Part shown: one piece after another, positions 3,001 through 64,000 of the stretch
Position numbering within the stretch: the stretch's first letter is position 1
Layout of the letters: every line of letters starts with the position of its first letter
Position numbers and translations under genes: made by a program
Origin: Eledone cirrhosa
Taxonomy: Eukaryota
Assembly: GCA_964016885.1 (NCBI GenBank)
Contig: OZ024740.1
Coordinates: 419,988,001 to 420,052,000 of the forward strand
DNA length: 64,000 bases
Direction of reading: 5' to 3'
Notes under the pieces: generated by a model
Told to the model about the DNA's origin: nothing
The model's input: only the letters and a program-made list of their open reading frames with translations
Database searches by the model: none

Positions 3001-5413
3001 CACTTAGATACATTGCCACACTCTGCTGATCTCTCTCAGATGAGCCACTGGTCTGTATTTTACTTAGATACATTGCCACACTTTGCTGATCTCTCTCAGA
3101 TGAGCCACTGGTCTGTATTTCACTTACATACATTGCCACACTCTGCTGATCTCTCTCAGGTGAGCCACTGGCCTGTATTTCACTTAGATACATTGCCACA
3201 CTCTGCTGATCTCTCGCAGGTGAGCCACTGGTCTGTATTTCACTTAGATACATTGCCACACTCTGCTGATCTCTCTCAGGTGAGCCAATGGCCTGTATTT
3301 CACTTACATACATTGCCACACTCTGCTGATCTCTCTCAGGTGAGCCACTGGTCTGTATTTCACTTACATACATTGCCACACTCTGCTGACCTCTCTCAGG
3401 TGGGCCACTGGTCTGTATTTCACTTAGATACATTGCCATACTCTGCTGATCTCTCTCAGGTGAGCCACTGGTCTGTATTTCACTTACATACATTGCCACA
3501 CTCTGCTGATCTCTCTCAGATGAGCCACTGGTCTGTATTTCACTTAGATACATTGCCACACTCTGCTGATCTCTCTCAGATGAGCCACTGGTCTGTATTT
3601 CACTTAGATACATTGCCACACTCTGCTGATCTCTCTCAGGTGAGCCACTGGTCTGTATTTCACTTAGATACATTGCCACACTCTGCTGATCTCTCTCAGA
3701 TGAGCCACTGGCCTGTATTTCACTTAGATACATTGCCACACTCTGCTGATCTCTCTCAGATGAGCCACTGGTCTGTATTTCACTTAGATACATTGCCACA
3801 CTCTGCTGATCTCTCTCAGATGAGCCACTGGCCTGTATTTCACTTAGATACATTGCCACACTCTGCTGATCTCTCGCAGGTGAGCCACTGGTCTGTATTT
3901 CACTTAGATACATTGCCACACTCTGCTGATCTCTCTCAGGTGAGCCACTGGTCTGTATTTCACTTAGATACATTGCCACACTCTGCTGATCTCTCGCACG
4001 TGAGCCACTGGTCTGTATTTCACTTAGATACATTGCCACACTCTGCTGATCTCTCTCAGATGAGCCACTGGTCTGTATTTCACTTACATACATTGCCACA
4101 CTCTGCTGATCTCTCTCAGATGAGCCACTGATCTGTATTTCACTTAGATACATTGCCACACTCTGCTGATCTCTCTCAGATGAGCCACTGGTCTGTATTT
4201 CACTTACATACATTGCCACACTCTGCTGATCTCTCTCAGGTGAGCCACTGGCCTGTATTTCACTTAGATACATTGCCACACTCTGCTGATCTCTCACAGG
4301 TGAGCCACTGGTCTGTATTTCACTTACATACATTGTCACACTCTGCTGATCTCTCTCAGGTGAGCCACTGGCCTGTATTTCACTTAGATACATTGCCACA
4401 CTCTGCTGATCTCTCTCAGGTGAGCCACTGGCCTGTATTTCACTTAGATACATTGCCACACTCTGCTGATCTCTATCAGGTGAGCCACTGGTCTGTATTT
4501 CACTTAGATACATTGCCACACTCTGCTGATCTCTCTCAGGTGGGCCACTCGTCTGTATTTCACTTAGATACATTGCCACACTCTGCTGACCTCTCTCAGG
4601 TGAGCCACTGGTCTGTATTTCACTTGCATACATTGCCACACTCTGCTGATCTCTCTCAGATGAGCCACTGGCCTGTATTTCACTTACATACATTGCCACT
4701 CTCTGCTGATCTCTCTCAGGTGAGCCACTGGTCTGTATTTCACTTAGATACATTGCCACACTCTGCTGATCTCTCTCAGGTGAGCCACTGGTCTGTATTT
4801 CACTCAGATACATTGCCACACTCTGCTGATCTCTCTCAGGTGAGCCACTGGTCTGTATTTCATTTACATACATTGCCACACTCTGCTGATCTCTCTCAGA
4901 TGAGCCACTGGTCTGTAGTTCACTTAGATACATTGCCACACTCTGCTGTTCTCTCTCAGATGAGCCACCCTGTCTGTATTTCACTTAGATACATTGCCAC
5001 ACTCTGCTGATCTCTGTCAGATGAGCCACTGGCCTGTATTTCACTTACATACATTGCCACACTCTTCTGTTCTCTCTCAGATGAGCCACTGGCCTGTATT
5101 TCACTTACATACATTGCCACACTCTGCTGATCTCTCTCAGATGAGCCACTGGCCTGTATTTCACTTACATACATTGCCACACTCTGCTGATCTCTCTCAG
5201 GTGAGCCACTGGCCTGTATTTTACTTAGATACATTGCCACACTCTGCTGATCTCTCTCAGGTGAGCCACTGGCCTGTATCTCACTTAGATACATTGCCAC
5301 ACTCTGCTGATCTCTCTCAGATGAGCCACTGGCCTTGTATTTCACTTACATACATTGCCACACTCTGCTGATCTCTCTCAGATGAGCCACTGGCCTGTAT
5401 TTCACTTACATAC
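1..5413. repeat. 60-bp tandem minisatellite/satellite array, about 90 copies visible, truncated by the window start
   Basis: Unit CACTTA[G/C]ATACATTGCCACACTCTGCTGATCTCTC[T/G]CAG[A/G]TGAGCCACTGG[T/C]CTGTATTT stays in exact 60-bp register from 1 to about 4968. Two +1 insertions follow (about 4970 and about 5335), and the array ends at ...CACTTACATAC (5413). Confidence 0.99.
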
Positions 5414-5472
5414 GTTCCCATATTCTTTATCATGGCTCCAACACTAGGGAGATTGTCACATCTTTGACACAA
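5410..5472 (-). CDS. Candidate 63-nt phase-0 internal exon (LCQRCDNLPSVGAMIKNMGTY), product unknown
   Basis: Minus strand reads cttttcAG|TTGTGT...ACGTAT|GTAAGT. The length is a multiple of 3 and only one of three frames is open. The pyrimidine tract is short and abuts an RTE relic, and no homologue was recognised. Confidence 0.3.
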
Positions 5473-42171: not shown

Positions 42172-42957
42172 ACTCTCTACCTCTCTCTCTCTCTCTGTTT
42201 GTGAGCTGTGTGTGTGTGTGCAGTATGTTTGTGTGTTCAGTGTTTGTTCTGTGTGCAGTGTGTTTGTGTGTCTGCAGTATGTGTGTGTGTGCAGTATGTG
42301 TGTGTTTGTGCATGCAATGTGTTTGTGTGTATGCAGTATGTATGTGTGTGCAGTGTTTTTGTACGTGTGCTGCATTGTATGTGTTCAGTGTATTTGTGTG
42401 TGTGTATGCAGTGTATATACAGTATGTGCGTATGAAGTATGTGTATATGTGTATGCAGTATGTGTATGTGTGTATGCAGTATGTGTATGTATACAGTATA
42501 TGTGTGTGTATATGCAGTATGTATATATACAGTATGTATGTGTATATGCATTATATGAGTGTGTATATGCAGTATGTATGTGTGTATGCAGTATGTATGT
42601 GTATATGCTGTATGTATGTATATACAGTATGTGTATATGTAGTATGTATGTGTATATGCTATATGTATGTGTATATGTAGTATGTATGTGTATATGCTGT
42701 ATGTATGTATATGCAGTATGTATGTGTATGAGCTGTATGTATGTATATGTAGTATGTACGTGTATATACAGTATGTATGTATATGCAGTATATGTGTGTG
42801 TATATGTAGTATGTATGTGTATATGCTGTATGTATGTATATACAGTATATGTATGTGTGTATGCAGTATATCTGTGTGTATATGTAGTATGTATGTGTAT
42901 GTAGTCCATATGTATATACAGAATATGTATGTGTGTATGCAGTCTATGTGTGTATGG
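42172..42957. repeat. Compound microsatellite: (CT)n, then degenerate (TG)n/(TATG)n punctuated by GCAGTA/GTAGTA
   Basis: Directly visible. It accounts for all the Cys/Val/Tyr- and His/Thr-rich ORFs at 42154-42975. Confidence 0.97.
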
Positions 42958-43261: not shown

Positions 43262-43390
43262 GTAGTGGTGGTATTGATGATGATGATGATGATGATGGTG
43301 ATGGTGATGGTGATGGCGGTGATGGTGGTGGTGGTGGTGGTGATGATGATGGTGGTGGTGGTGATGATCATGGTGATTCTGATGATGGTA
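43262..43390. repeat. Mixed (GAT)n/(GGT)n trinucleotide microsatellite
   Basis: Directly visible. It explains the Met/Val ORF at 43265-43453. Confidence 0.97.
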
Positions 43391-43597
43391 GGGGTGTTGG
43401 CAGGCAGTAATGGCTGTTGTTGTTTAACCCCAGGTTTGTTCTCATTAAGCTAACTTCTGATCCAGCCATGATTATATAAACCATGACTGTCAGTTTTTCT
43501 CCAATATGAGGGGGCAACTGTTATAGTAAAGTGTATCCACAATGATAGGAATGCACTGGTTTTTATTGGTGCTGGGGAGAAGAAGGATGCATAAATG

Positions 43598-44345
43598 ACC
43601 CCTTATGAGAAATTGTTAGATGCAGATAATGAATGAAGGCCTTCTCTAAGTAGACCTAACTAGGGGATCAGCCACCAAAGTGATTAAGGACATGAAGGTA
43701 GGGAAAGGAGCTGAACTGTAACGTATAGTTGTCAAGATGCTAAAAATATCTGGTATGGTAGATTACAAGCTAGTCAGATGCATAATCAATCAAGTGGTAT
43801 GGGGTGGTGTCATTGAGTATCTATGGTACTGCTACTACGGTGAAGGAGACACATTAGTGAGAGATAACTACACAGGCATCAAGTTGATAGACTATGTCAT
43901 GAAAGTTACTGAAAGGGTTATAGGAACAGAATTAAGCTACATGAAATATAGTTCACCTCTTTAGCCAGGTAGGGGTACCACTGATGCCGTCTTCCTTTGT
44001 GAGACAATTGCAGGTGAAGTATTTAGCTAAAGGTAACCCTTTGTACTTAGCATTTATAGATCAGGAGAAGGCTTTTAAAAGAGTTCCCTGTTCTGTAATC
44101 TGGTGGGTGGTGGGTGCTAAGGAAATTAGATATAAATGAATGGCTGATGAAGGCCATACAAGCCATGTATAAAGGTGCAACCAGTAAGGTGAGTGTTGAC
44201 AATTAGTACTGTGACACATTTGGAATTCAGATGTGGGTCTACCAGGGTTCAATGCTCAGTCCCCTCCTTTCAGGTCATAACAGTGGAGTTTAAAACTAGT
44301 ACTGTTTGGGAATTTCTGTGTGCTGATTTAATCCTTATATCTGGA
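43598..44345 (+). mobile_element. Decayed RTE-clade LINE, reverse-transcriptase region up to the catalytic YADD motif (pseudogenised)
   Basis: Colinear RT segments across frameshifts and stops: VIKDMKVGKG, MLKISGMVDYKLVRCIINQVV, GEGDTLVRDNYTGIKLIDYVMKVTERVI, PGRGTTDAVFL, RQLQVKYLAKGNPLYLAFIDQEKAFKRVP, QGSMLSPLL, QVITVEFKTS..WEFLCADLILI (family pattern PWELLYADDL.LIAE). The 5' boundary is approximate. Confidence 0.93.
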
Positions 44346-47300
44346 CATGTAGATCTAGTCCTTATATCTAGACATGTAGATCTAGTCCTTATATCTAGAT
44401 ATGTAGATCTAGTCCTTATATCTGGATATGTAGATCTAGTCCTTATATCTGGATATGTAGATCTAGTCCTTATATCTGGATATGTAGAAGATCTAGTCCT
44501 TATATCTGGATATGTAGAAGATCTAGTCCTTATATCTGGATATGTAGATCTAGTCCTTATATCTGGATATGTAGAAGATCTAGTCCTTATATCTGGATAT
44601 GTAGATCTAGTCCTTATATCTGGATATGTAGAAGATCTAGTCCTTATATCTGGATATGTAGAAGATCTAGTCCTTATATCTGGATATGTAGATCTAGTCC
44701 TTATATCTGGATATGTAGAAGATCTAGTCCTTATATCTGGATATGTAGATCTAGTCCTTATATCTGGATATGTAGAAGATCTAGTCCTTATATCTAGATA
44801 TGTAGATCTAGTCCTTATATCTAGATATGTAGATCTAGTCCTTATATCTAGATATGTAGATCTGGTCCTTATATCTGGATATGTAGATCTAGTCCTTATA
44901 TCTGGATATGTAGAAGATCTAGTCCTTATATCTGGATATGTAGAAGATCTAGTCCTTATATCTGGATATGTAGATCTAGTCCTTATATCTGGATATGTAG
45001 AAGATCTAGTCCTTATATCTGGATATGTAGAAGATCTAGTCCTTATATCTGGATATGTAGATCTAGTCCTTATATCTGGATATGTAGAAGATCTAGTCCT
45101 TATATCTGGATATGTAGAAGATCTAGTCCTTATATCTGGATATGTAGAAGATCTAGTCCTTATATCTGGATATGTAGAAGATCTAGTCCTTATATCTAGA
45201 TATGTAGATCTAGTCCTTATATCTGGATATGTAGAAGATCTAGTCCTTATATCTGGATATGTAGATCTAGTCCTTATATCTAGATATGTAGATCTAGTCC
45301 TTATATCTAGATATGTAGATCTAGTCCTTATATCTGGATATGTAGAAGATCTAGTCCTTATATCTGGATATGTAGATCTAGTCCTTATATCTGGATATGT
45401 AGATCTAGTCCTTATATCTGGATATGTAGAAGATCTAGTCCTTATATCTGGATATGTAGAAGATCTAGTCCTTATATCTAGATATGTAGAAGATCTAGTC
45501 CTTATATCTGGATATGTAGAAGATCTAGTCCTTATATCTGGATATGTAGAAGATCTAGTCCTTATATCTGGATATGTAGATGTAGTCCTTATATCTGGAT
45601 ATGTAGATCTAGTCCTTATATCTGGATATGTAGATGTAGTCCTTATATCTGGATATGTAGATCTAGTGCTTATATCTGGATATGTAGATCTAGTCCTTAT
45701 ATCTAGATATATAGATCTAGTCCTTATATCTAGATATGTAGATCTAGTCCTTATATCTGGATATGTAGATCTAGTCCTTATATCTAGATATGTAGATCTA
45801 GTCCTTATATCTAGATATGTAGATCTAGTCCTTATATCTGGATATGTAGATCTAGTCCTTATATCTAGATATGTAGATCTAGTCCTTATATCTAGATATG
45901 GAGATCTAGTCCTTATATCTAGATATGGAGATCTAGTCCTTATATCTGGATATGTAGATCTAGTCCTTATATCTGGATATGTAGATCTAGTCCTTATATC
46001 TGGATATGTAGATCTAGTCCTTATATCTAGATATGTAGATCTAGTCCTTATATCTAGATATGTAGATCTAGTCCTTATATCTAGATATGTAGATCTAGTC
46101 CTTATATCTAGATATGTAGAAGATCTAGTCCTTATATCTAGATATGGAGATCTAGTCCTTATATCTGGATATGTAGATCTAATCCTTATATCTGGATATG
46201 TAGAAGATCTAGTCCTTATATCTGGATATGTAGAAGATCTAGTCCTTGTATCTAGATATGTATATCTAGTCCTTATATCTAGATATGTAGATCTAGTCCT
46301 TATATCTAGATATGTAGATCTAGTCCTTATATCTGGATATGTAGATCTAGTCCTTATATCTGGATATGTAGATCTAGTCCTTATATCTAGATATGTAGAA
46401 GATCTAGTCCTTATATCTGGATATGTAGAAGATCTAGTCCTTATATCTAGATATGTAGAAGATCTGGTCCTTATATCTAGATATGTAGAAGATCTAGTCC
46501 TTATATCTGGATATGTAGAAGATCTAGTCCTTATATCTGGATATGTAGAAGATCTAGTCCTTATATCTGGATATGTAGAAGATCTAGTCCTTATATCTAG
46601 ATATGTAGAAGATCTAGTCCTTATATCTAGATATGTAGAAGATCTCGTCTTTATATCTAGATATGTAGAAGATCTAGTCCTTATATCTGGATATGTAGAA
46701 GATCTTGTCCTTATACCTGGATATGTAGATCTAGTCCTTATATCTAGATATGTAGATCTAGTCCTTATATCTGGATATGTAGATCTAGTCCTTATATCTG
46801 GATATGTAGATCTAGTCCTTATATCTGGATATGTAGAAGATCTAGTCCTTATATCTGGATATGTAGATCTAGTCCTTATACCTGGATATGTAGAAGATCT
46901 AGTCCTTATATCTGGATATGTAGAAGATCTAGTCCTTATATCTGGATATGTAGATCTAGTCCTTATATCTGGATATGTAGAAGATCTAGTCCTTATATCT
47001 AGACATGTAGATCTAGTCCATATATCTAGATATGTAGATCTAGTCCTTATATCTGGATATGTAGATCTAGTCCTTATATGTAGATATGTAGATCTAGTCC
47101 TTATATCTGGATATGTAGAAGATCTAGTCCTTATATCTGGATATGTAGAAGATCTAGTCCTTATATCTGGATATGTAGAAGATCTAGTCCTTATATCTGG
47201 ATATGTAGAAGATCTAGTCCTTATATCTGGATATGTAGATCTAGTCCTTATACCTGGATATGTAGATCTAGTCCTTATATCTTGATATGTAGATCTAGTC

Positions 47301-50300
47301 CTTATATCTGGATATGTAGAATATCTAGTCCTTATACCTGGATATGTAGATCTAGTCCTTATATCTGGATATGTAGAAGATCTAGTCCTTATATCTGGAT
47401 ATGTAGAAGATCTAGTCCTTATATCTGGATATTTAGATCTAGTCCTTATATCTGGATATGTAGATCTAGTCCTTAGATATGTAGATCTAGTCCTTATATC
47501 TGGATATGTAGATCTAGTCCTTATATCTGGATATGTAGAATATCTAGTCCTTATACCTGGATATGTAGATCTAGTCCTTATATCTGGATATGTAGATCTA
47601 GTCCTTATATCTAGATATGTAGATCTAGTCCTTATATCTGGATATGTAGAAGATCTAGTCCTTATATCTGGATATGTAGAAGATCTAGTCCTTATATCTG
47701 GATATTTAGATCTAGTCCTTATATCTGGATATGTAGATCTAGTCCTTATATCTAGATATGTAGATCTAGTCCTTATATCTAGATATGTAGATCTAGTCCT
47801 TATATCTGGATATGTAGAAGATCTAGTCCTTATATCTGGATATGTAGATCTAGTCCTTATATCTAGATATGTAGATCTAGTCCTTATATCTAGATATGTA
47901 GAAGATCTAGTCCTTATATCTAGATATGTAGAAGATCTAGTCCTTATATCTAGATATGTAGATCTAGTCCTTATATCTAGATATATAGAAGATCTAGTCC
48001 TTATATCTGGATATGTAGATCTAGTCCTTATATCTAGATATGTAGATCTAGTCCTTATACCTGGATATGTAGATCTAGTCCTTATATCTAGATATGTAGA
48101 TCTAGTCCTTATATCTAGATATGTAGATCTAGTCCTTATATCTGGATATGTAGAAGATCTAGTCCTTATATCTGGATATGTAGAAGATCCAGTCCTTATA
48201 TCTGGATATGTAGATCTAGTCCTTATACCTGGATATGTAGATCTAGTCCTTATACCTGGATATGTAGAAGATCTAGTCCTTATATCTGGATATGTAGATC
48301 TAGTCCTTATACCTGGATATGTAGATCTAGTCCTTATATCTGGATATGTAGATCTAGTCCTTATATCTAGATATGTAGATCTAGTCCTTATATCTGGATA
48401 TGTAGAAGATCTAGTCCTTATATCTGGATATGTAGATCTAGTCCTTATACCTGGATATGTAGATCTAGTCCTTATATCTAGATATGTAGATCTAGTCCTT
48501 ATATCTAGATATGTAGATCTAGTCCTTATACCTGGATATGTAGATCTAGTCCTTATATCTGGATATGTAGATCTAGTCCTTATATCTGGATATGTAGAAG
48601 ATCTAGTCCTTATATCTGGATATGTAGAAGATCTAGTCCTTATATCTAGATATGTAGAAGATCTGGTCCTTATATCTAGATATGTAGAAGATCTAGTCCT
48701 TATATCTGGATATGTAGAAGATCTAGTCCTTATATCTAGATATGTAGAAGATCTAGTCCTTATATCTAGATATGTAGAAGATCTAGTCCTTATATCTGGA
48801 TATGTAGAAGATCTAGTCCTTATATCTGGATATGTAGATCTAGTCCTTATATCTGGATATGTAGATCTAGTCCTTATATCTGGATATGTAGATCTAGTCC
48901 TTATATCTGGATATGTAGATCTAGTCCTTATATCTGGATATGTAGATCTAGTCCTTATATCTGGATATGTAGATCTAGTCCTTATATCTGGATATGTAGA
49001 AGATCTAGTCCTTATACCTGGATATGTAGAAGATTTAATCCTTATATCTGGATATGTAGATCTAGTCCTTATATCTGGATATGTAGAAGATCTAGTCCTT
49101 ATATCTGGATATGTAGATCTAGTCCTTATATCTGGATATGTAGATCTAGTCCTTATATCTGGATATGTAGATCTAGTCCTTATATCTGGATATGTAGATC
49201 TAGTCCTTATATCTGGATATGTAGATCTAGTCCTTATATCTGGATATGTAGAAGATCTAGTCCTTATATCTGGATATGTAGAAGATCTAGTCCTTATACC
49301 TGGATATGTAGAAGATTTAATCCTTATATCTGGATATGTAGATCTAGTCCTTATATCTGGATATGTAGATCTAGTCCTTAGATATGTAGATCTAGTCCTT
49401 ATATCTAGATATGTAGATCTAGTCCTTATATCTAGATATGTAGATCTAGTCCTTATATCTAGATATGGAGATCTAGTCCTTATATCTGGATATGTAGAAG
49501 ATCTAGTCCTTATATCTAGATATGGAGATCTAGTCCTTATATCTGGATATGTAGATCTAGTCCTTATATCTAGATATGTAGATCTAGTCCTTATATCTAG
49601 ATATGTAGATCTAGTCCTTATATCTAGATATGTAGATCTAGTCCTTATATCTAGATATGTAGATCTAGTCCTTATATCTAGATATGGAGATCTAGTCCTT
49701 ATATCTGGATATGTAGATCTAGTCCTTATATCTAGATATGTAGATCTAGTCCTTATATCTAGATATGTAGATCTAGTCCTTATATCTAGATATGTAGATC
49801 TAGTCCTTATATCTAGATATGGAGATCTAGTCCTTATATCTGGATATGTAGATCTAGTCCTTATATCTAGATATGTAGAAGGTCTAGTCCTTATATCTAG
49901 ATATGTAGAAGATCTAGTCCTTATATCTGGATATGTAGATCTAGTCCTTATATCTAGATATGTAGAAGATCTAGTCCTTATATCTAGATATGTAGAAGAT
50001 CTAGTCCTTATATCTGGATATGTAGAAGATCTAGTCCTTATATCTAGATATGTAGAAGATCTAGTCCTTATATCTAGATATGTAGAAGATCTAGTCCTTA
50101 TATCTAGATATGTAGAAGATCTAGTCCTTATATCTGGATATGTAGATCTAGTCCTTATATCTAGATATTTAGATCTAGTCCTTATATCTAGATATGTAGA
50201 AGATTTAATCCTTATATCTGGATATGTAGATCTAGTCCTTATGTCTAGATATGTAGATCTAGTCCTTAGATATGTAGATCTAGTCCTTATATCTAGATAT

Positions 50301-53300
50301 GTAGATCTAGTCCTTATATCTGGATATGTAGATCTAGTCCTTAGATATGTAGATCTAGTCCTTATATCTAGATATGTAGATCTAGTCCTTATATCTGGAT
50401 ATGTAGAAGATCTAGTCCTTATATCTGGATATGTAGAAGATCTAGTCCTTATATCTGGATATGTAGATCTAGTCCTTATATCTGGATATGTAGAAGATCT
50501 AGTCCTTATATCTAGATATGTAGATCTAGTCCTTATATCTGGATATGTAGAAGATCTAGTCCTTATATCTGGATATGTAGAAGATCTAGTCCTTATATCT
50601 GGATATGTAGATCTAGTCCTTATATCTGGATATGTAGATCTAGTCCTTATATGTAGATATGTAGAAGATCTAGTCCTTATATCTGGATATGTAGATCTAG
50701 TCCTTATATCTAGATATGTAGATCTAGTCCTTATATCTGGATATGTAGATCTAGTCCTTATATCTGGATATGTAGATCTAGTCCTTATATCTGGATATGT
50801 AGAAGATCTAGTCCTTATATCTAGATATATAGCTCTAGCCCTTATATCTAGATATGTAGATCTAGTCCTTATATCTAGATATGTAGATCAAGTCCTTATA
50901 TCTGGATATGTAGATCTAGTCCTTAGATATGTAGATCTAGTCCTTATATCTGGATATGTAGATCTAGTCCTTATATCTGGATATGTAGAAGATCTAGTCC
51001 TTATATCTGGATATGTAGATCTAGTCCTTATATCTAGATATGTAGATCTAGTCCTTATATCTAGATATGTAGATCTAGTCCTTATATCTAGATATGTAGA
51101 TCTAGTCCTTATATCTGGATATGTAGAAGATCTAGTCCTTATATCTAGATATGTAGATCTAGTCCTTATATCTGGATATGTAGATCTAGTCCTTATATCT
51201 AGATATGTAGATCTAGTCCTTATATCTAGATATGTAGATCTAGTCCTTATATCTAGATATGTAGATCTAGTCCTTATACCTGGATATGTAGATCTAGTCC
51301 TTATATCTGGATATGTAGAAGATCTAGTCCTTATATCTAGATATGTAGATCTAGTCCTTATATCTGGATATGTAGATCTAGTCCTTATATCTAGATATGT
51401 AGAAGATCTAGTCCTTATATCTAGATATGTAGATCTAGTCCTTATACCTGGATATGTAGAAGATCTAGTCCTTATATCTGGATATGTAGATGTAGTCCTT
51501 ATATCTAGATATGTAGAAGATCTAGTCCTTATATCTGGATATGTAGAAGATCTAGTCCTTATATCTGGATATGTAGAAGATCTAGTCCTTATATCTGGAT
51601 ATGTAGAAGATCTAATCCTTATATCTAGATATGTATATCTAGTCCTTATATCTAGATATGTAGATCTAGTCCTTATATCTAGATATGTAGATCTAGTCCT
51701 TATATCTGGATATGTAGATCTAGTCCTTATATCTAGATATGTAGATCTAGTCCTTATATCTAGATATGGAGATCTAGTCCTTATATCTAGATATGGAGAT
51801 CTAGTCCTTATATCTGGATATGTAGAAGATCTAGTCCTTATATGTAGATATGTAGATCTAGTCCTTATATCTGGATATGTAGATCTAGTCCTTATATCTA
51901 GATATGTAGAAGATCTAGTCCTTATATCTGGATATGTAGATGTAGTCCTTATATCTGGATATGTAGATCTAGTCCTTATATCTAGATATGTAGATCTAGT
52001 CCTTATATCTAGATATGGAGATCTAGTCCTTATATCTAGATATGGAGATCTAGTCCTTATATCTGGATATGTAGAAGATCTAGTCCTTATATGTAGATAT
52101 GTAGATCTAGTCCTTATATCTGGATATGTAGATGTAGTCCTTATATCTGGATATGTAGAAGATCTAGTCCTTATATCTGGATATGTAGATCTAGTCCTTA
52201 TATCTAGATATGTAGATCTAGTCCTTATATCTGGATATGTAGATCTAGTCCTTATATCTGGATATGTAGAAGATCTAGTCCTTATATCTAGATATGTAGA
52301 AGATCTAGTCCTTATATCTGGATATGTAGATCTAGTCCTTATATCTGGATATGTAGATCTAGTCCTTATATCTAGATATGTAGATCTAGTCCTTATATCT
52401 AGATATGTAGATCTAGTCCTTATATCTAGATATGTAGAAGATCTAGTCCTTATATGTAGATATGTAGATCTAGTCCTTATATGTAGATATGTAGATCTAG
52501 TCCTTATATCTAGATATGTAGATCTAGTCCTTATATCTAGATATGTAGAAGATCTAGTCCTTATATGTAGATATGTAGATCTAGTCCTTATATCTAGATA
52601 TGTAGATCTAGTCCTTATATCTAGATATGTAGAAGATCTAGTCCTTATATCTAGATATGCAGAAGATCTAGTCCTTATATGTAGATATGTAGATCTAGTC
52701 CTTATATGTAGATATGTAGATCTAGTCCTTATATCTAGATATGTAGAAGATCTAGTCCTTATATGTAGATATGTAGATCTAGTCCTTATACCTGGATATG
52801 TAGATCTAGTCCTTATATCTGGATATGTAGATCTAGTCCTTATATCTAGATATGTAGAAGATCTAGTCCTTATATCTAGATATGTAGAAGATCTAGTCCT
52901 TATATCTGGATATGTAGAAGATCTAGTCCTTATATCTAGATATGTAGAAGATCTAGTCCTTATATCTAGATATGTAGAAGATCTAGTCCTTATATCTAGA
53001 TATGTAGAAGATCTAGTCCTTATATCTGGATATGTAGATCTAGTCCTTATGTCTAGATATTTAGATCTAGTCCTTATATCTGGATATGTAGAAGATTTAA
53101 TCCTTATATCTGGATATGTAGATCTAGTGCTTATATCTGGATATGTAGAAGATTTAATCCTTATATCTGGATATGTAGATCTAGTCCTTATGTCTAGATA
53201 TGTAGATCTAGTCCTTATATCTAGATATGTAGATCTAGTCCTTATATCTGGATATGTAGATCTAGTCCTTAGATATGTAGATCTAGTCCTTATATCTAGA

Positions 53301-56300
53301 TATGTAGATCTAGTCCTTATATCTAGATATGTAGAAGATCTAGTCCTTATATCTGGATATGTAGATCTAGTCCTTATATCTGGATATGTAGATCTAGTCC
53401 TTATATCTGGATATGTAGAAGATCTAGTCCTTATATCTGGATATGTAGAAGATCTAGTCCTTATATCTGGATATGTAGATCTAGTCCTTATATCTAGATA
53501 TGTAGATCTAGTCCTTATATCTGGATATGTAGAAGATCTAGTCCTTATATCTAGATATGTAGATCTAGTCCTTATATCTAGATATGTAGATCTAGTCCTT
53601 ATATCTGGATATGTAGAAGATCTAGTCCTTATATCTAGATATGTAGATCTAGTCCTTATATCTAGATATGTAGATCTAGTCCTTATATCTGGATATGTAG
53701 AAGATCTAGTCCTTATATCTAGATATGTAGATCTAGTCCTTATATCTGGATATGTAGAAGATCTAGTCCTTATATCTAGATATGTAGATCTAGTCCTTAT
53801 ATCTAGATATGTAGATCTAGTCCTTATATCTGGATATGTAGATCTAGTCCTTATATCTGGATATGTAGATCTAGTCCTTATATCTAGATATGTAGATCTA
53901 GTCCTTATACCTGGATATGTAGATCTAGTTCTTATATCTGGATATGTAGAAGATCTAGTCCTTATATCTAGATATGTAGATCTAGTCCTTATATCTAGAT
54001 ATGTAGATCTAGTCCTTATACCTGGATATGTAGATCTAGTCCTTATATCTGGATATGTAGAAGATCTAGTCCTTATCACTAGATATGTAGATCTAGTCCT
54101 TATATCTGGATATGTAGATCTAGTCCTTATATCTGGATATGTAGATCTAGTCCTTATATCTGGATATGTAGATCTAGTCCTTATATCTAGATATGTAGAA
54201 GATCTAGTCCTTATATCTAGATATGTAGAAGATCTAGTCCTTATATCTGGATATGTAGATCTAGTCCTTATATCTGGATATGTAGAAGATCTAGTCCTTA
54301 TCACTAGATATGTAGATCTAGTCCTTATACCTGGATATGTAGATCTAGTCCTTATATCTGGATATGTAGAAGATCTAGTCCTTATATCTAGATATGTAGA
54401 TCTAGTCCTTATATCTGGATATGTAGATCTAGTCCTTATATCTAGATATGTAGATCTAGTCCTTATATCTGGATATGTAGATCTAGTGCTTATGTCTAGA
54501 TATGTAGATCTAGTCTTTATATCTAGATATATAGATCTAGTCCTTATATCTAGATATGTAGATCTAGTCCTTATATCTAGATATGTAGATCTAGTCCTTA
54601 TATCTAGATATGTAGAAGATCTAGTCCTTATATCTAGATATGTAGATCTAGTCCTTATATCTAGATATGTAGATCTAGTCCTTATACCTGGATATGTAGA
54701 AGATCTAGTCCTTATATCTGGATATGTAGATCTAGTCCTTATATCTAGATATGTAGAAGATCTAGTCCTTATATGTAGATATGTAGATCTAGTCCTTATA
54801 TGTAGATATGTAGATCTAGTCCTTATACCTGGATATGTAGAAGATCTAGTCCTTATATCTGGATATGTAGATCTAGTCCTTATATCTAGATATGTAGAAG
54901 ATCTAGTCCTTATATGTAGATATGTAGATCTAGTCCTTATACCTGGATATGTAGATCTAGTCCTTATATCTGGATATGTAGATCTAGTCCTTATATCTAG
55001 ATATGTAGAAGATCTAGTCCTTATATCTAGATATGTAGAAGATCTAGTCCTTATATCTGGATATGTAGAAGATCTAGTCCTTATATCTAGATATGTAGAA
55101 GATCTAGTCCTTATATCTAGATATGTAGAAGATCTAGTCCTTATATCTAGATATGTAGAAGATCTAGTCCTTATATCTGGATATGTAGATCTAGTCCTTA
55201 TATCTAGATATTTAGATCTAGTCCTTATATCTAGATATGTAGAAGATTTAATCCTTATATCTGGATATGTAGATCTAGTCCTTATATCTGGATATGTAGA
55301 AGATTTAATCCTTATATCTGGATATGTAGATCTAGTCCTTATGTCTAGATATGTAGATCTAGTCCTTATATCTAGATATGTAGATCTAGTCCTTATATCT
55401 GGATATGTAGATCTAGTCCTTATATATGTAGATCTAGTCCTTATATCTAGATATGTAGATCTAGTCCTTATATCTAGATATGTAGAAGATCTAGTCCTTA
55501 TATTTGGATATGTAGATCTAGTCCTTATATCTGGATATGTAGATCTAGTCCTTATATCTGGATATGTAGAAGATCTAGTCCTTATATCTGGATATGTAGA
55601 AGATCTAGTCCTTATATCTAGATATGTAGAAGATCTAGTCCTTATATTTGGATATGTACATCTAGTCCTTATATCTGGATATGTAGATCTAGTCCTTATA
55701 TCTGGATATGTAGAAGATCTAGTCCTTATATCTGGATATGTAGAAGATCTAGTCCTTATATCTAGATATGTAGATCTAGTCCTTTTATCTAGATATGTAG
55801 ATCTAGTCCTTATATCTGGATATGTAGATCTAGTCCTTATACCTGGATATGTAGATCTAGTCCTTATATCTGGATATGTAGAAGATCTAGTCCTTATATC
55901 TAGATATATAGATCTAGCCCTTATATCTAGATATGTAGATCTAGTCCTTATATCTAGATATGTAGATCTAGTCCTTATATCTGGATATGTAGATCTGGTC
56001 CTTAGATATGTAGATCTAGTCCTTAGATATGTAGATCTAGTCCTTATATCTAGATATGTAGATCTAGTCCTTAGATATGTGGATCTAGTCCTTATATCTA
56101 GATATGTAGATCTAGTCCTTATATCTGGATATTTAGATCTAGTCCTTATACCTGGATATGTAGATCTAGTCCTTATATCTGGATATGTAGATCTAGTCCT
56201 TATATCTGGATATGTAGAAGATCTAGTCCTTATATCTGGATATGTAGAAGATCTAGTCCTTATATCTGGATATGTAGATCTAGTCCTTATATCTAGATAT

Positions 56301-59300
56301 GTAGATCTAGTCCTTATATCTGGATATGTAGAAGATCTAGTCCTTATATCTAGATATGTAGATCTAGTCCTTATATCTGGATATGTAGATCTAGTCCGTA
56401 TATCTGGATATGTAGATCTAGTCCTTATATCTAGATATGTAGATCTAGTCCTTATATCTAGATATGTAGATCTAGTCCTTATATCTAGATATGTAGATCT
56501 AGTCCTTATATCTGGATATGTAGATCTAGTCCTTATACCTGGATATGTAGATCTAGTTCTTATATCTGGATATGTAGAAGATCTAGTCCTTATATCTAGA
56601 TATGTAGATCTAGTCCTTATACCTGGATATGTAGATCTAGTCCTTATATCTGGATATGTAGAAGATCTAGTCCTTATATCTGGATATGTAGATCTAGTCC
56701 TTATATCTAGATATGTAGATCTAGTCCTTATATCTGGATATGTAGAAGATCTAGTCCTTATATCTAGATATGTAGATCTAGTCCTTATATCTGGATATGT
56801 AGATCTAGTCCTTATATCTGGATATGTAGATCTAGTCCTTATATCTGGATATGTAGATCTAGTCCTTATATCTAGATATGTAGATCTAGTCCTTATACCT
56901 GGATATGTAGATCTAGTCCTTATATCTGGATATGTAGAAGATCTAGTCCTTATATCTAGATATGTAGATCTAGTCCTTATATCTGGATATGTAGATCTAG
57001 TCCTTATATCTAGATATGTAGATCTAGTCCTTATATCTGGATATGTAGATCTAGTGCTTATGTCTAGATATGTAGATCTAGTCTTTATATCTAGATATAT
57101 AGATCTAGTCCTTATATCTAGATATGTAGATCTAGTCCTTATATCTAGATATGTAGATCTAGTCCTTATATCTAGATATGTAGATCTAGTCCTTATACCT
57201 GGATATGTAGAAGATCTAGTCCTTATATCTGGATATGTAGATCTAGTCCTTATATCTAGATATGTAGAAGATCTAGTCCTTATATCTGGATATGTAGAAG
57301 ATCTAGTCCTTATATCTGGATATGTAGAAGATCTAGTCCTTATATCTGGATATGTAGAAGATCTAGTCCTTATATCTAGATATGTATATCTAGTCCTTAT
57401 ATCTAGATATGTAGATCTAGTCCTTATATCTAGATATATAGATCTAGTCCTTATATCTAGATATGTAGATCTGCTCCTTATATCTGGATATGTAGAAGAT
57501 CTAGTCCTTATATCTGGATATGTAAATCTAGTCCTTATATCTAGATATGTAGAAGATCTAGTCCTTATATCTGGATATGTAGATCTAGTCCTTATATCTG
57601 GATATGTAGAAGATCTAGTCCTTATATCTGGATATGTAGTAGATCTAGTCCTTATATCTGGATATGTAGAAGATCTAGTCCTTATATCTAGATATGTATA
57701 TCTAGTCCTTATATCTAGATATGTAGATCTAGTCCTTATATCTAGATATGTAGATCTAGTCCTTATATCTAGATATGTAGATCTAGTCCTTATATCTGGA
57801 TATGTAGATCTAGTCCTTATATCTAGATATGTAGAAGATCTAGTCCTTATATCTGGATATGTAGATCTAGTCCTTATATCTGGATATGTAGAAGATCTAG
57901 TCCTTATATCTGGATATGTAGAAGATCTAGTCCTTATATCTGGATATGTAGAAGATCTAGTCCTTATATCTGGATATGTAGAAGATCTAGTCCTTATATC
58001 TAGATATGTATATCTAGTCCTTATATCTAGATATGTAGATCTAGTCCTTATATCTAGATATATAGATCTAGTCCTTATATCTAGATATGTAGATCTGCTC
58101 CTTATATCTGGATATGTAGAAGATCTAGTCCTTATATCTGGATATGTAGATCTAGTCCTTATATCTAGATATGTAGATCTAGTCCTTATATCTAGATATG
58201 TAGATCTAGTCCTTATATCTGGATATGTAGAAGTTCTAGTCCTTATATCTGGATATGTAGAAGATCTAGTCCTTATATCTGGATATGTAGAAGATCTAGT
58301 CCTTATATCTAGATATGTAGGTCTAGTCCTTATATTTAGATATGTAGATCTAGTCCTTATATCTGGATATGTAGAAGATCTAGTCCTTATATCTGGATAT
58401 GTAGAAGATCTAGTCCTTATATCTAGATATGTAGGTCTAGTCCTTATATTTAGATATGTAGATCTAGTCCTTATATCTGGATATGTAGAAGATCTAGTCC
58501 TTATATCTGGATATGTAGATCTAGTCCTTATACCTGGATATGTAGATCTAGTCCTTATACCTGGATATGTAGATCTAGTCCTTATATCTGGATATGTAGA
58601 AGATCTAGTCCTTATATCTAGATATGTAGATCTAGTTCTTATATCTAGATATGTAGATCTAGTCCTTATATCTGGATATGTAGAAGATCTAGTCCTTATA
58701 TCTAGATATGTAGATCTAGTCCTTATATCTGGATATGTAGATCTAGTCCTTATATCTGGATATGTAGATCTAGTCCTTATATCTGGATATGTAGATCTAG
58801 TCCTTATACCTGGATATGTAGATCTAGTCCTTATATCTAGATATGTAGATCTAGTCCTTATATCTGGATATGTAGAAGATCTAGTCCTTATATCTAGATA
58901 TGTAGATCTAGTCCTTATATCTAGATATGTAGATCTAGTCCTTATATCTGGATATGTAGAAGATCTAGTCCTTATATCTAGATATGTAGATCTAGTCCTT
59001 ATATCTGGATATGTAGATCTAGTCCTTATACCTGGATATGTAGAAGATCTAGTCCTTATATCTAGATATGTAGATCTAGTCCTTATATCTGGATATGTAG
59101 ATCTAGTCCTTATATCTAGATATGTAGATCTAGTCCTTATATCTGGATATGTAGATCTAGTGCTTATGTCTAGATATGTAGATCTAGTCTTTATATCTAG
59201 ATATATAGATCTAGTCCTTATATCTAGATATGTAGATCTAGTCCTTATATCTAGATATGTAGATCTAGTCCTTATATCTAGATATGTAGAAGATCTAGTC

Positions 59301-62300
59301 CTTATATCTAGATATGTAGATCTAGTCCTTATATCTAGATATGTAGATCTAGTCCTTATACCTGGATATGTAGAAGATCTAGTCCTTATATCTGGATATG
59401 TAGATCTAGTCCTTATATCTAGATATGTAGAAGATCTAGTCCTTATATCTGGATATGTAGAAGATCTAGTCCTTATATCTGGATATGTAGAAGATCTAGT
59501 CCTTATATCTGGATATGTAGAAGATCTAGTCCTTATATCTGGATATGTAGAAGATCTAGTCCTTATATCTAGATATGTATATCTAGTCCTTATATCTAGA
59601 TATGTAGATCTAGTCCTTATATCTAGATATGTAGATCTAGTCCTTATATCTAGATATGTAGATCTAGTCCTTATATCTAGATATGTAGATCTAGTCCTTA
59701 TATCTGGATATGTAGATCTAGTCCTTATATCTAGATATGTAGAAGATCTAGTCCTTATATCTGGATATGTAGATCTAGTCCTTATATCTGGATATGTAGA
59801 TCTAGTCCTTATATCTGGATATGTAGATCTAGTGCTTATGTCTAGATATGTAGATCTAGTCTTTATATCTAGATATATAGATCTAGTCCTTATATCTAGA
59901 TATGTAGATCTAGTCCTTATATCTAGATATGTAGATCTAGTCCTTATATCTAGATATGTAGAAGATCTAGTCCTTATATCTAGATATGTAGATCTAGTCC
60001 TTATATCTAGATATGTAGATCTAGTCCTTATACCTGGATATGTAGAAGATCTAGTCCTTATATCTGGATATGTAGATCTAGTCCTTATATCTAGATATGT
60101 AGAAGATCTAGTCCTTATATCTGGATATGTAGAAGATCTAGTCCTTATATCTGGATATGTAGAAGATCTAGTCCTTATATCTGGATATGTAGATCTAGTC
60201 CTTATATCTAGATATGTAGAAGATCTAGTCCTTATATCTGGATATGTAGATCTAGTCCTTATATCTGGATATGTAGAAGATCTAGTCCTTATATCTGGAT
60301 ATGTAGAAGATCTAGTCCTTGTATCTGGATATGTAGAAGATCTAGTCCTTATATCTGGATATGTAGAAGATCTAGTCCTTATATCTAGATAAGTATATCT
60401 AGTCCTTATATCTAGATATGTAGATCTAGTCCTTATATCTAGATATATAGATCTAGTCCTTATATCTAGATATGTAGATCTGCTCCTTATATCTGGATAT
60501 GTAGAAGATCTAGTCCTTATATCTGGATATGTAAATCTAGTCCTTATATCTAGATATGTAGAAGATCTAGTCCTTATATCTGGATATGTAGATCTAGTCC
60601 TTATATCTGGATATGTAGAAGATCTAGTCCTTATATCTGGATATGTAGAAGATCTAGTCCTTATATCTGGATATGTAGAAGATCTAGTCCTTATATCTAG
60701 ATATGTATATCTAGTCCTTATATCTAGATATGTAGATCTAGTCCTTATATCTAGATATGTAGATCTAGTCCTTATATCTAGATATGTAGATCTAGTCCTT
60801 ATATCTGGATATGTAGAAGTTCTAGTCCTTATATCTGGATATGTAGAAGATCTAGTCCTTATATCTGGATATGTAGAAGATCTAGTCCTTATATCTAGAT
60901 ATGTAGATCTAGTCCTTATATTTAGATATGTAGATCTAGTCCTTATATCTGGATATGTAGAAGATCTAGTCCTTATATCTGGATATGTAGATCTAGTCCT
61001 TATACCTGGATATGTAGATCTAGTCCTTATACCTGGATATGTAGATCTAGTCCTTATATCTAGATATGTAGATCTAGTCCTTATATCTGGATATGTAGAA
61101 GATCTAGTCCTTATATCTAGATATGTAGATCTAGTTTTTATATCTAGATATGTAGATCTAGTCCTTATATCTAGATATGTAGATCTTGTCCTTATATCTA
61201 GATATGTAGATCTAGTCCTTATATCTGGATATGTAGAATATCTAGTCCTTATATCTGGATATGTAGAAGATCCAGTCCTTATATCTGGATATGTAGAAGA
61301 TCTAGTCCTTATATCTGGATATGTAGAACATCTAGTCCTTATATCTGGATATGTAGAAGATCTAGTCCTTATATCTAGATATGTAGATCTAGTCCTTATA
61401 TCTGGATATGTAGAGCATCTAGTCCTTATATCTGGATATGTAGAAGATCTAGTCCTTATATCTAGATATGTAGATCTAGTCCTTATATCTGGATATGTAG
61501 AAGATCTAGTCCTTATATCTAGATATTTAGATCTAGTCCTTATATCTAGATATGTAGATCTAGTCCTTATATCTGGATATGTAGATCTAGTCCTTATATC
61601 TGGATATGTAGATCTAGTCCTTATACCTGGATATGTAGATCTAGTCTTTATATCTAGATATGTAGATCTAGTCCTTATATCTGGATATGTAGAAGATCTA
61701 GTCCTTATATCTAGATATGTAGATCTAGTCCTTATATCTGGATATGTAGAAGATCTAGTCCTTATATCTGGATATGTAGATCTAGTCCTTATATCTGGAT
61801 ATTTAGATCTAGTCCTTATATCTGGATATGTAGAAGATCTAGTCCTTATATCTGGATATGTAGAAGATCTAGTCCTTATATCTAGATATGTAGAAGATCT
61901 AGTCCTTATATCTAGATATGTAGATCTAGTCCTTATATCTAGATATGTAGATCTAGTCCTTATATCTAGATATGTAGATCTAGTCCTTATATCTAGATAT
62001 GTACATCTAGTCCTTATATCTGGATATGTAGATCTAGTCCTTATATCTGGATATGTAGAAGATCTAGTCCTTATATCTAGATATGTAGAAGATCTAGTCC
62101 TTATATCTAGATATGTAGAAGATCTAGTCCTTATATCTAGATATGTAGATCTAGTCCTTATATCTAGATATGTAGATCTAGTCCTTATATCTGGATATGT
62201 AGATCTAGTCCTTATATCTAGATATGTAGATCTAGTCCTTATATCTGGATATGTAGAAGGTCTAGTCCTTATATCTGGATATGTAGAACATCTAGTCCTT

Positions 62301-64000
62301 ATATCTGGATATGTAGAACATCTAGTCCTTATATCTGGATATGTAGAAGATCTAGTCCTTATATCTAGATATGTAGATCTAGTCCTTATATCTAGATATG
62401 TAGATCTAGTCCTTATATCTGGATATGTAGAAGATCTAGTCCTTATATCTAGATATGTAGATCTAGTCCTTATATCTAGATATGTAGATCTAGTCCTTAT
62501 ATCTGGATATGTAGAAGATCTAGTCCTTATATCTGGATATGTAGAAGATCTAGTCCTTACATCTGGATATGTAGAAGATCTAGTCCTTATATCTAGATAT
62601 GTAGATCTAGTCCTTATATCTAGATATGTAGATCTAGTCCTTATATCTGGATATGTAGAAGATCTAGTCCTTATATCTAGATATGTAGATCTAGTCCTTA
62701 TATCTGGATATGTAGAAGATCTAGTCCTTATATCATGATATGTAGATCTAGTTCTTATATCTAGATATGTAGATCTAGTCCTTATATCTGGATATGTAGA
62801 AGATCTAGTCCTTATATCTAGATATGTAGATCTAGTTCTTATATCTAGATATGCAGATCTAGTCCTTATATCTAGATATGTAGATCTAGTCCTTATATCT
62901 AGATATGTAGATCTAGTCCTTATATCTAGATATGTAGATCTAGTCCTTATATCTAGATATGTAGATCTAGTTCTTATATCTAGATATGCAGATCTAGTCC
63001 TTATATCTAGATATGTAGATCTTGTCCTTATATCTAGATATGTAGATCTAGTCCTTATATCTGGATATGTAGAATATCTAGTCCTTATATCTGGATATGT
63101 AGAAGATCCAGTCCTTATATCTGGATATGTAGAAGATCTAGTCCTTATATCTGGATATGTAGAACATCTAGTCCTTATATCTGGATATGTAGAAGATCTA
63201 GTCCTTATATCTAGATATGTAGATCTAGTCCTTATATCTGGATATGTAGAGCATCTAGTCCTTATATCTGGATATGTAGAAGATCTAGTCCTTATATCTA
63301 GATATGTAGATCTAGTCCTTATATCTGGATATGTAGAAGATCTAGTCCTTATATCTAGATATTTAGATCTAGTCCTTATATCTTGATATGTAGAAGATCT
63401 AGTCCTTATATCTAGATATGTAGATCTAGTCCTTATATCTGGATATGTAGATCTAGTCCTTATATCTGGATATGTAGATCTAGTCCTTATACCTGGATAT
63501 GTAGATCTAGTCTTTATATCTAGATATGTAGATCTAGTCCTTATATCTGGATATGTAGAAGATCTAGTCCTTATATCTAGATATGTAGATCTAGTCCTTA
63601 TATCTGGATATGTAGAAGATCTAGTCCTTATATCTGGATATGTAGATCTAGTCCTTATATCTGGATATTTAGATCTAGTCCTTATATCTGGATATGTAGA
63701 AGATCTAGTCCTTATATCTGGATATGTAGAAGATCTAGTCCTTATATCTAGATATGTAGAAGATCTAGTCCTTATATCTAGATATGTAGATCTAGTCCTT
63801 ATATCTAGATATGTAGATCTAGTCCTTATATCTAGATATGTAGATCTAGTCCTTATATCTAGATATGTACATCTAGTCCTTATATCTGGATATGTAGATC
63901 TAGTCCTTATATCTGGATATGTAGAAGATCTAGTCCTTATATCTAGATATGTAGAAGATCTAGTCCTTATATCTAGATATGTAGAAGATCTAGTCCTTAT
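44325..64000. repeat. 27/30/21-bp tandem minisatellite array, more than 19.6 kb and about 700 copies, truncated by the window end; derived from the RT catalytic-motif region
   Basis: Unit GATCTAGTCCTTATATCT[G/A]GATATGTA(GAA), with occasional 21-bp units lacking ATATCT. The first unit, GATTTAATCCTTATATCTGGACATGTA, overlaps the LINE codons D-L-I-L-I. Confidence 0.99.

Follow-up and report, generated by a model that had tools for sequence, protein, structure and literature searches.

The window, the whole stretch of 64,000 nucleotides analysed, runs into a minisatellite that we interpret, with a probability of about 0.88, as a single-locus array that began in a broken RTE-type LINE by a neutral local duplication and expanded later, at a site that was likely random. 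Followed into neighbouring assembly stretches, the array spans 44325-68336, ends at 68336/68337 and holds 856 units in 24,012 bp; the minisatellite of more than 19 kb described in the first-pass annotation is thus real. Amplification in place is well supported, based on the confinement of the modal unit, the in-frame LINE on both sides, the homology of the unit to the LINE and the short-read depth (feature coordinates in Table 1).

Table 1. Features of the array and its parent LINE; "extended" positions continue past the window.
Feature	Position	Strand	Remarks
Decayed RTE-type LINE ORF, 5' part	43529..44324	+	Post-endonuclease linker up to the RT motif; broken by several stops and frameshifts
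Degenerate RT catalytic motif WEFLCAD	44307..44327	+	WELLYADD in the family; Tyr to Cys, one Asp codon missing
Minisatellite array, in-window part	44325..64000	+	27-, 30- and 21-bp units matching family DLVLIAESV codons
Longest open segment of the array (RT frame), 4368 codons without a stop	47286..60389	+	No sign of selection
Array beyond the window	to extended 68336 (locus L021 1-4336)	+	Neighbouring assembly stretch
LINE ORF resuming in frame as AELERKFQIWKQNLELKGLKVN...	extended 68337-68525 (L021 4337-4525)	+	Directly after the array
Decayed LINE sequence, then short ATG-type tail	tail near extended 69089-69105	+	Tail presumably the LINE 3' end

The array and its parent LINE

In tblastn searches, two natural ORFs of the LINE family match colinearly over 43529-44369; family residues 268-292 end at 44369 and residues 287-359 start at 68310. 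Identical family copies align to the left and right flanks of the array, and the element is colinear on both sides with nothing skipped, the sole gap being 3 bp at the left edge. As the first-pass annotation described, the reverse transcriptase (RT) relic runs to WEFLCADLILI (44307-44339) and passes without spacer into a first unit at the Asp codon at 44325. Its prediction that the LINE would resume right after the array was borne out beyond 64000, where the ORF continues in frame as AELERKFQIWKQNLELKGLKVN. It had also placed the seed at the catalytic YxDD motif. The codons are those of the motif end, but the motif is already decayed here (CAD-L, with the Tyr changed and an Asp codon missing).

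The LINE flank shares ~70% nucleotide identity with 19 other genomic copies. Since stops interrupt the window's copy, family copies were searched against Pfam instead, with RVT_1 in one (L020, E 2e-32) and Exo_endo_phos_2 in another (L012, E 2e-6). Family copies carry an endonuclease, an RT and a PHD-type Cys/His finger, and in relatives endonuclease and RT lie within single proteins of ~1040 aa. The AP-type endonuclease precedes the RT in one ORF on other family copies, whereas the window's copy is broken: with its stops, frameshifts and CAD-L it lacks the intact ORF with YxDD of an active LINE. We take the element to be of RTE type; the architecture agrees, and there is no named RTE reference among the proteins of the relatives.

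TRF run on the window returned a single array (44325-64000, period 27, 702.5 copies, 91% matches). Over its full length, the 21-30 bp units follow one another head to tail, within the 10-100 bp range of such arrays; 526 of the 856 are 27 bp long, 320 are 30 bp and 10 are 21 bp, so the commonest unit is not the 30-bp form first reported. Long exact repeats occur internally (for example, 1443 bp at offset 1866), as does a 1.9-kb block repeat at 61529/63395, which may be real or an assembly duplication. Units are closest to each other, with a mean pairwise difference of 4.0% against 19-37% from units to family copies, and are homologous to the transposon at the very site of the array.

This homology covers nine or ten LINE codons at the end of the RT active-site motif. 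The nucleotide similarity expected from the first-pass reading is present: in alignments with the DLVLIAESV codons of 14 family copies, 17-22 of the 27 unit bases agree, in line with the ~70% identity of the flank. The mean best match is 18.8/27, a value reached by 0 of 1000 shuffled units, which score 13.0 +/- 0.6. Three unit bases, at positions 16, 20 and 23, match none of the 14 family copies: G is absent from position 16 in 846 of 846 units (T in 796), 845 of 846 have G at position 20 and all 846 have A at position 23. These private bases could come from an unsampled LINE subfamily.

The modal unit has 631 exact matches in the genome, all of them inside the array and none on the reverse strand; the genome-wide exact-match search found none elsewhere. 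A protein-level search with the array start also stayed within the array among the matches listed (150 of 172), although it scored only 150 of 5680 candidates and, saturated by the array itself, is hardly informative on other loci. Exact-match and top-candidate searches, which could miss diverged unit copies, thus reveal no dispersed satellite family with one unit in arrays at several loci. It is barely conceivable that a satellite common elsewhere entered the LINE and that its likeness to the motif is coincidental, the case that the first-pass annotation had named as refuting its reading. We found no evidence supporting such an insertion; the modal unit has no exact match outside the array, and removing the array would also take away the LINE's own DLVLIAESV codons. 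Local exact matches, LINE colinearity and unit homology together refute it.

Copy number, growth and reading frame

Both junctions are crossed by short-read contigs with 0 differences, over 713 bp on the left and 109 bp on the right. The short-read runs come from one sample, possibly the assembly's own, and therefore check the assembly rather than an independent individual. An array length that is largely an assembly artefact, with a short duplication over-expanded by the assembler, seems quite improbable. No listed read or contig spans the array and all support comes from the single sample, but the depth of unit words is about 800-960 times that of the flank, corresponding to about 800-960 copies and in agreement with 856, and the array contains 87 distinct unit types in non-periodic order.

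Based on sequence comparison, we infer an order of decay, duplication and expansion. Neither an unexpanded allele nor an orthologue was seen; for other individuals there were three RAD-seq runs, with little usable coverage of the junctions and none of the array. The LINE copy would have inserted and decayed first, consistent with the three bases (16, 20 and 23) that are foreign to the family yet common to nearly all units. Next, 27-30 bases at the end of the decayed RT motif would have been tandemly duplicated, most likely on a weak GA-N-[C/T]TAG likeness between the D-L codons and the downstream E-L codons. A 30-bp register for this first duplication is somewhat favoured (about 60%) over a 27-bp start (about 40%). 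The family's left border and this copy's right border agree at 6 of 10 bases in the 30-bp register and at ~1 in the 27-bp register. The 30-bp register thus has the better microhomology, itself weak with 3 bases exact, yet both edges of the array are 27-bp units. Growth to 856 units then probably proceeded by repeated unequal exchange or slippage, with block duplication probably giving the repeated runs of variant units of up to 1.4 kb and 3-bp slippage interconverting the 27- and 30-bp forms. Homology and flanks support the earlier proposal that codons at the motif end were duplicated in place, within a parent element that still flanks the array.

The units read YV(E)DLVLIS[G/R], as first described, in a single frame across the entire array with 6 stops. 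The modal unit is stop-free and repeated many times, so that a long open frame arises by construction. It is very unlikely that selection keeps the array in frame for translation as a long hydrophobic repeat protein, (DLVLISGYV)n, even with 24,012 bp in a single frame, a 4368-codon open stretch and unit lengths all divisible by three. The six stops arise from two of the four possible stop mutations, and synonymous changes are not favoured, with 11 of 24 possible (46%) seen against 34 of 62 non-synonymous (55%). Moreover, the LINE ORF upstream is disrupted by stops and frameshifts, and the first 995-codon segment lacks a Met. The spectrum of changes across units is neutral, with no sign that purifying selection maintains the frame, and we reject selection on the long open frame on this basis. 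The array is probably functionless and non-coding, and its 4368-codon open frame, with no sign of a gene, is a warning for annotation.

There is no frameshifting indel in 24 kb of array, while 4 or 5 of 7 neighbouring arrays have off-length spacings, a contrast that amounts to only two or three independent indel events. The in-frame unit lengths count against the neutral explanation, which we nevertheless consider the best.

Position in the LINE and genomic background

The first-pass annotation considered seeding at the active-site codons unusual. This is not supported, since other RTE copies are duplicated there, other ORF positions are duplicated as often or more and, with so many long arrays genome-wide, several such cases are to be expected. 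Among 79 evenly spaced 10-kb samples, 29 minisatellite arrays with differing units make up 14.3% of the sequence (bootstrap 8-21%), and 10 of the 29 are at least 5 kb long. Long repeat arrays thus fill roughly a seventh of the sampled DNA, and the position of this array at the motif is likely a random draw. Assuming random seeding and a 40-bp target, we roughly expect ~28 arrays of at least 1 kb and ~6 of at least 5 kb at the motif by chance, the latter estimate resting on 4 array ends.

The alternative, a hot spot of array birth at the catalytic motif owing to the D-L/E-L microhomology and short palindromes of this region, is quite unlikely. Tandem duplications do lie over or next to the motif in L074 (29 bp x 2) and, in another LINE family, in L159 (47 bp x 2), and L154 repeats the whole WELLYADE motif (49 bp x 5.4) before its parent LINE resumes. 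TE-internal hot spots have also been reported for AluS (PMC3389668). We compared motif and control positions by six exact 11-mer probe searches, one of them with a narrower gap, and opened matches L074, L154, L159, L163, L183-185 and L188 (L185 had no RTE protein match). Three motif probes (11 sample occurrences) gave 7 loci; the 3 that were opened proved LINE-derived, the other 4 looked simple-sequence-like, and one probe gave none. At control positions of the ORF, one probe (8 occurrences) found 9 loci, a second (10 occurrences) 7 loci and a third (17 occurrences) 3031 matches spread over at least 3 loci, leaving a hot spot at YADD unsupported. The four motif-region units also have four different lengths and registers. 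The search of the genome for RTE copies with arrays at the motif, suggested by the first-pass annotation, thus recovered short duplications (L074 and L154) but no second long array in the exact-probe searches.

In 385 of 856 units, those having A at position 19, there is a 12-bp palindrome, and one stretch has a folding z-score of -2.0. Other unit types fold at z = -0.8 and -0.5, and all three values fall between the extremes of -2.8 and +0.7 set by 21 other arrays, which leaves hairpin formation as a special cause without support.

One process appears to act at many positions of this LINE family and in other DNA genome-wide. An RTE ORF, colinear on both sides, also encloses another array 60 kb upstream (54 bp, 269 copies, 14 kb), which keeps no frame, as 105 of its spacings are 53 bp. 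In L163, the C-terminal part of the ORF contains a 38-bp, 21-copy array. A tblastn comparison of the edges of the 29 sampled arrays with the RTE ORF gave only 2 weak flank matches, so most are unproven as derivatives of it; by blastn, 11 of the 29 units match sequence in other loci. Two tested array units appear confined to one strand and region, with ~155 kb and ~0.8 Mb of array. We give even odds to a genome-wide process in which ordinary stretches of 20-100 bp, often in dead transposons, become private arrays of 1 kb to nearly 1 Mb at tens of thousands of loci with a different unit each, accounting for ~14% (some 400 Mb) of the genome; the present array would then be an example with its parent attached. 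If true, this would be a route of genome growth distinct from classical satellite families, with transposon-seeded arrays giving seed rules and rates. In the literature covered, mostly outside subscription journals, so that absence counts for little, we found no minisatellite seeded at an RT motif and no comparable load of private arrays.

Comparison with known tandem repeats

Taken singly, the locus is of minor importance: it is probably a neutral repeat within a dead element, and no special cause is required to explain why it lies at the active site. Of greater interest is the load of private arrays across the genome. How long minisatellites begin is mostly unexplained (PMC3389668), and this array is an unusually complete birth record of a very long one. 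With the seed, the parent on both sides and the family sequence to hand, the seed state, register and later variants can be read. If the background load holds genome-wide, minisatellite beginnings could be tested on thousands of arrays with known ancestral seeds.

Transposon-derived minisatellites formed in place are already known, and the array is a clean further case. In humans, at least 7,276 tandem repeats, 23% of mini/satellites, derive from Alu, L1 and LTR elements (PMC3389668), and B1- and MaLR-derived VNTRs are found in mouse (PMC6947457). Like these, it has a unit ~70% similar to the element at an overlapping position, a local duplication and the parent around it. Unlike these, its parent is an RTE-type LINE ORF. 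At 856 units and 24 kb, it far exceeds the "up to 100 repeat units" stated for minisatellites (PMC6947457), and its LINE copy is long decayed, whereas younger elements are described as more prone to tandem repeat formation (PMC3389668). In the model of Haber and Louis (1998), as presented in PMC6947457, the first duplication occurs between 5-10 bp repeats flanking the future unit, and growth follows by slippage, conversion or unequal crossing-over. The flanking likeness here (6 of 10 bases, 3 exact) fits this weakly.

RTE-2_OV is an RTE-clade LINE with one ORF encoding EN, RT and a zinc finger (PMC9115989). The family copies share this layout, a likeness of architecture, whereas the window's copy is dead. 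Repeats from LINE coding sequence include PROsat and Pvc20 (both L1 ORF2), and further LINE-derived repeats are chicken HinfI/SCR1 (CR1 3' UTR plus part of ORF2) and the common cetacean satellite (L1 3' part), all tabulated in PMC9659126; its account, as far as consulted here, does not mention the catalytic motif. With them, the present array shares a LINE-derived unit, which in some comes from the RT-encoding ORF. They are named repeat families or markers, whereas the array is one locus by exact match, with a very short unit and both parent flanks kept.

A minisatellite continuous with its parent LINE

As the first-pass annotation had stated, WEFLCADLILI is encoded at 44307-44339 and runs into the array at Asp codon 44325. 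With neighbouring stretches of the assembly added, the right end of the array lies at 68336/68337 in extended window numbering, and the whole comprises 24,012 bp in 856 units. The key prediction, that the LINE resumes after the array, was borne out: its frame continues as AELERKFQIWKQNLELKGLKVN past the last unit, left and right flanks align to the same family copies, and in tblastn family residues 268-292 reach 44369 and residues 287-359 begin at 68310. The left junction is spanned by a 713-bp short-read contig with zero differences, and the right junction by one of 109 bp. Word depth over the unit relative to flank depth gave ratios of 947, 839, 799 and 963, a range that brackets 856; these runs all derive from one sample, which may be the source of the assembly.

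The left flank returned 1609 first-look genome candidates; among the 40 of these that were scored, 39 lie at other loci (69-74% identity). Intact family copies read WELLYADDL[V/A]LIAES[M/V]xELExKFQxWK; their domains include RVT_1, an endonuclease and a PHD finger, which occur together in single proteins of ~1040 aa among the relatives. This architecture fits an RTE-clade LINE, a putative clade name, as described in the available part of PMC9115989. In this copy the motif reads CAD-L, and the flanks contain stops and frameshifts.

Features and their locations (negative positions and those beyond 64000 are in extended window numbering)
Feature	Location	Remarks
60-bp array	window 1-5420	TRF; one of three long arrays in window; starts at -4926 in neighbouring stretch L031, 172 copies in all; source of unit looked for and not found
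49-bp array	window 6731-42083	TRF; one of three long arrays in window; 722 copies, 35 kb, several unit lengths, long internal block repeats (e.g. offset 7181); unit matches none of the tested family loci
Degenerate TG/TA-rich repeat and (TGA/TGG)n tract	window 42207-42956 and 43275-43387	between 49-bp array and LINE relic
27-bp array	window 44325-64000	TRF; one of three long arrays in window
54-bp array	-29735 to -15329 (L033-L032)	
46-48 bp arrays	76499-77214, 91520-93018, 105552-105751, 110266-110490 (L022-L025)	units resemble a segment shared with non-coding ends of family loci, also in sample L135; either a true hot spot or a repeat internal to the element could explain them
Young RTE fragment	114605-119018 (L026)	98-99% to loci L012, L015, L017; ends exactly at edge of a 22-bp array
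Motif-region array	L154 1466-1733	
38-bp arrays	G000:C1 557,892 (L163) and C1 6,957,999	6.4 Mb apart; unit from C-terminal part of RTE ORF; recurrent birth or a copied array
24-bp array	L114 (G000:C3 from 342.13 Mb)	10,395 exact matches, one strand; first 100 listed at one place
36-bp array	L076 (G000:C1 from 31.94 Mb)	1,940 exact matches to a 28-mer of the unit, one strand; first 100 listed at one place
PHD-type finger	L020 1012-2823	directly after RT domain; common to many relatives in protein database

The unit and its origin

The unit begins at one Asp codon. In 14 family copies, those of 19 loci in which the motif could be located, 17-22 of its 27 bases agree with the DLVLIAESV codons. 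The mean match was 18.8, against 13.0 +/- 0.6 for shuffles, none of which (0/1000) scored as high. This homology and the colinear flanks support an origin in place from RT-motif codons, with the parent still attached. Exact matches to the modal unit pattern number 631 genome-wide, every one forward-strand and inside the array; by exact matching, the satellite is confined to this locus.

The unit had been described as 30 bp, but its commonest length is 27 bp (526 units, with 320 of 30 bp and 10 of 21 bp); an extra GAA is present in 315 of the 30-bp units. Units fall into 87 types and differ pairwise by 4.0% on average, and exact repeats within the array reach 1443 bp, indicating block duplication. 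Positions 16, 20 and 23 are unlike all 14 family copies (AES to SGY), yet common to nearly all units. The array probably grew from a dead LINE copy, and so no working active site would have been amplified.

Both Asp codons may once have been part of the unit, depending on where the extra GAA came from. The sequence is compatible with three histories: the first unit had 30 bp and included both Asp codons; it had 30 bp and its last codon was the next one of the LINE; or it had 27 bp, with three bases added later through slippage. We lean somewhat towards 30 bp, given its better border likeness (6/10) and the position of all seven internal units with the left-edge variant after a GAA, although 27-bp units stand at both array edges.

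The array keeps one frame throughout, with 6 stops and a longest open stretch of 4368 codons. Every length variant is a multiple of three, and all stem from two or three events. The spectrum of single changes seen among those possible (synonymous 11/24, non-synonymous 34/62, stop 2/4) shows no selection on the frame.

Array load and the catalytic-motif position

Arrays were sought across the 3.0-Gb assembly that holds the window (G000:C1:419988001-420052000) in 79 evenly spaced 10-kb samples (L075-L153, C1-C26), requiring a period of at least 15, at least 300 bp, at least 4 copies, 80% matches and no microsatellite-like character. The 29 arrays that passed, with differing units, cover 14.3% of sampled bases (bootstrap 8-21%); the share is 17.6% on the four largest contigs and 8.5% on the others, and in seven samples a single array takes up the full 10 kb. 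Sampled densities and the first 100 matches of each suggest that the L114 and L076 units are single loci, with arrays of ~0.8 Mb and ~155 kb.

In 194 kb of window and neighbours, TRF found 10 arrays of at least 1 kb (units 22-76 bp, own array counted). A second RTE ORF, on the minus strand, contains a 14.4-kb array of 269 54-bp copies with frequent 53-bp units; the flanks of that array are colinear with the family. The motif region is duplicated as 29 bp x 2 in locus L074 and, in another LINE, as 47 bp x 2 in L159; in L154, an independent array (49 bp x 5.4) covers the whole WELLYADE of another RTE copy, whose sequence then resumes.

RTE copies that include the YADD region number 14 in the samples and ~53,000 when extrapolated genome-wide, for which random seeding would crudely predict ~28 arrays of at least 1 kb at the motif and ~6 of at least 5 kb, the latter derived from 4 array ends. 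Exact-probe genome searches agree with this: one motif probe found no loci and another found 6, two of which were inspected, and control ORF positions gave 9 loci, 7 loci and 3031 matches, among them an array of 21 copies within the ORF at L163; no enrichment at the motif is visible. Seeding at the active site, earlier regarded as unusual, is therefore not supported as having special meaning, since chance predicts several arrays there. Against a chance position, ours is the only long array found at the motif, and the expected handful of others were unseen; an array whose unit has changed, as has happened here, escapes exact probes.

Formation and known systems

The LINE copy would have decayed before the array formed; a first tandem duplication would have arisen on weak microhomology, and the array would then have expanded through unequal exchange or slippage. 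The parts of this mechanism seen directly are location, homology, the single locus, the neutral spectrum and block repeats. Folding energy does not set the array's unit apart from others.

TE-derived minisatellites are common, with at least 7,276 in human according to the available part of PMC3389668, and LINE ORF2-derived repeats are tabulated in that of PMC9659126. A word search of the available part of PMC12988792 did not return 'satellite', and in the portion of the literature covered, main texts only, we found no report that places an array at an RT motif or describes a genome-wide load of this kind. The more novel reading is about this load rather than the single locus. The mechanism proposed here follows the short-flanking-repeat scheme of minisatellite birth, as described in the available part of PMC6947457.
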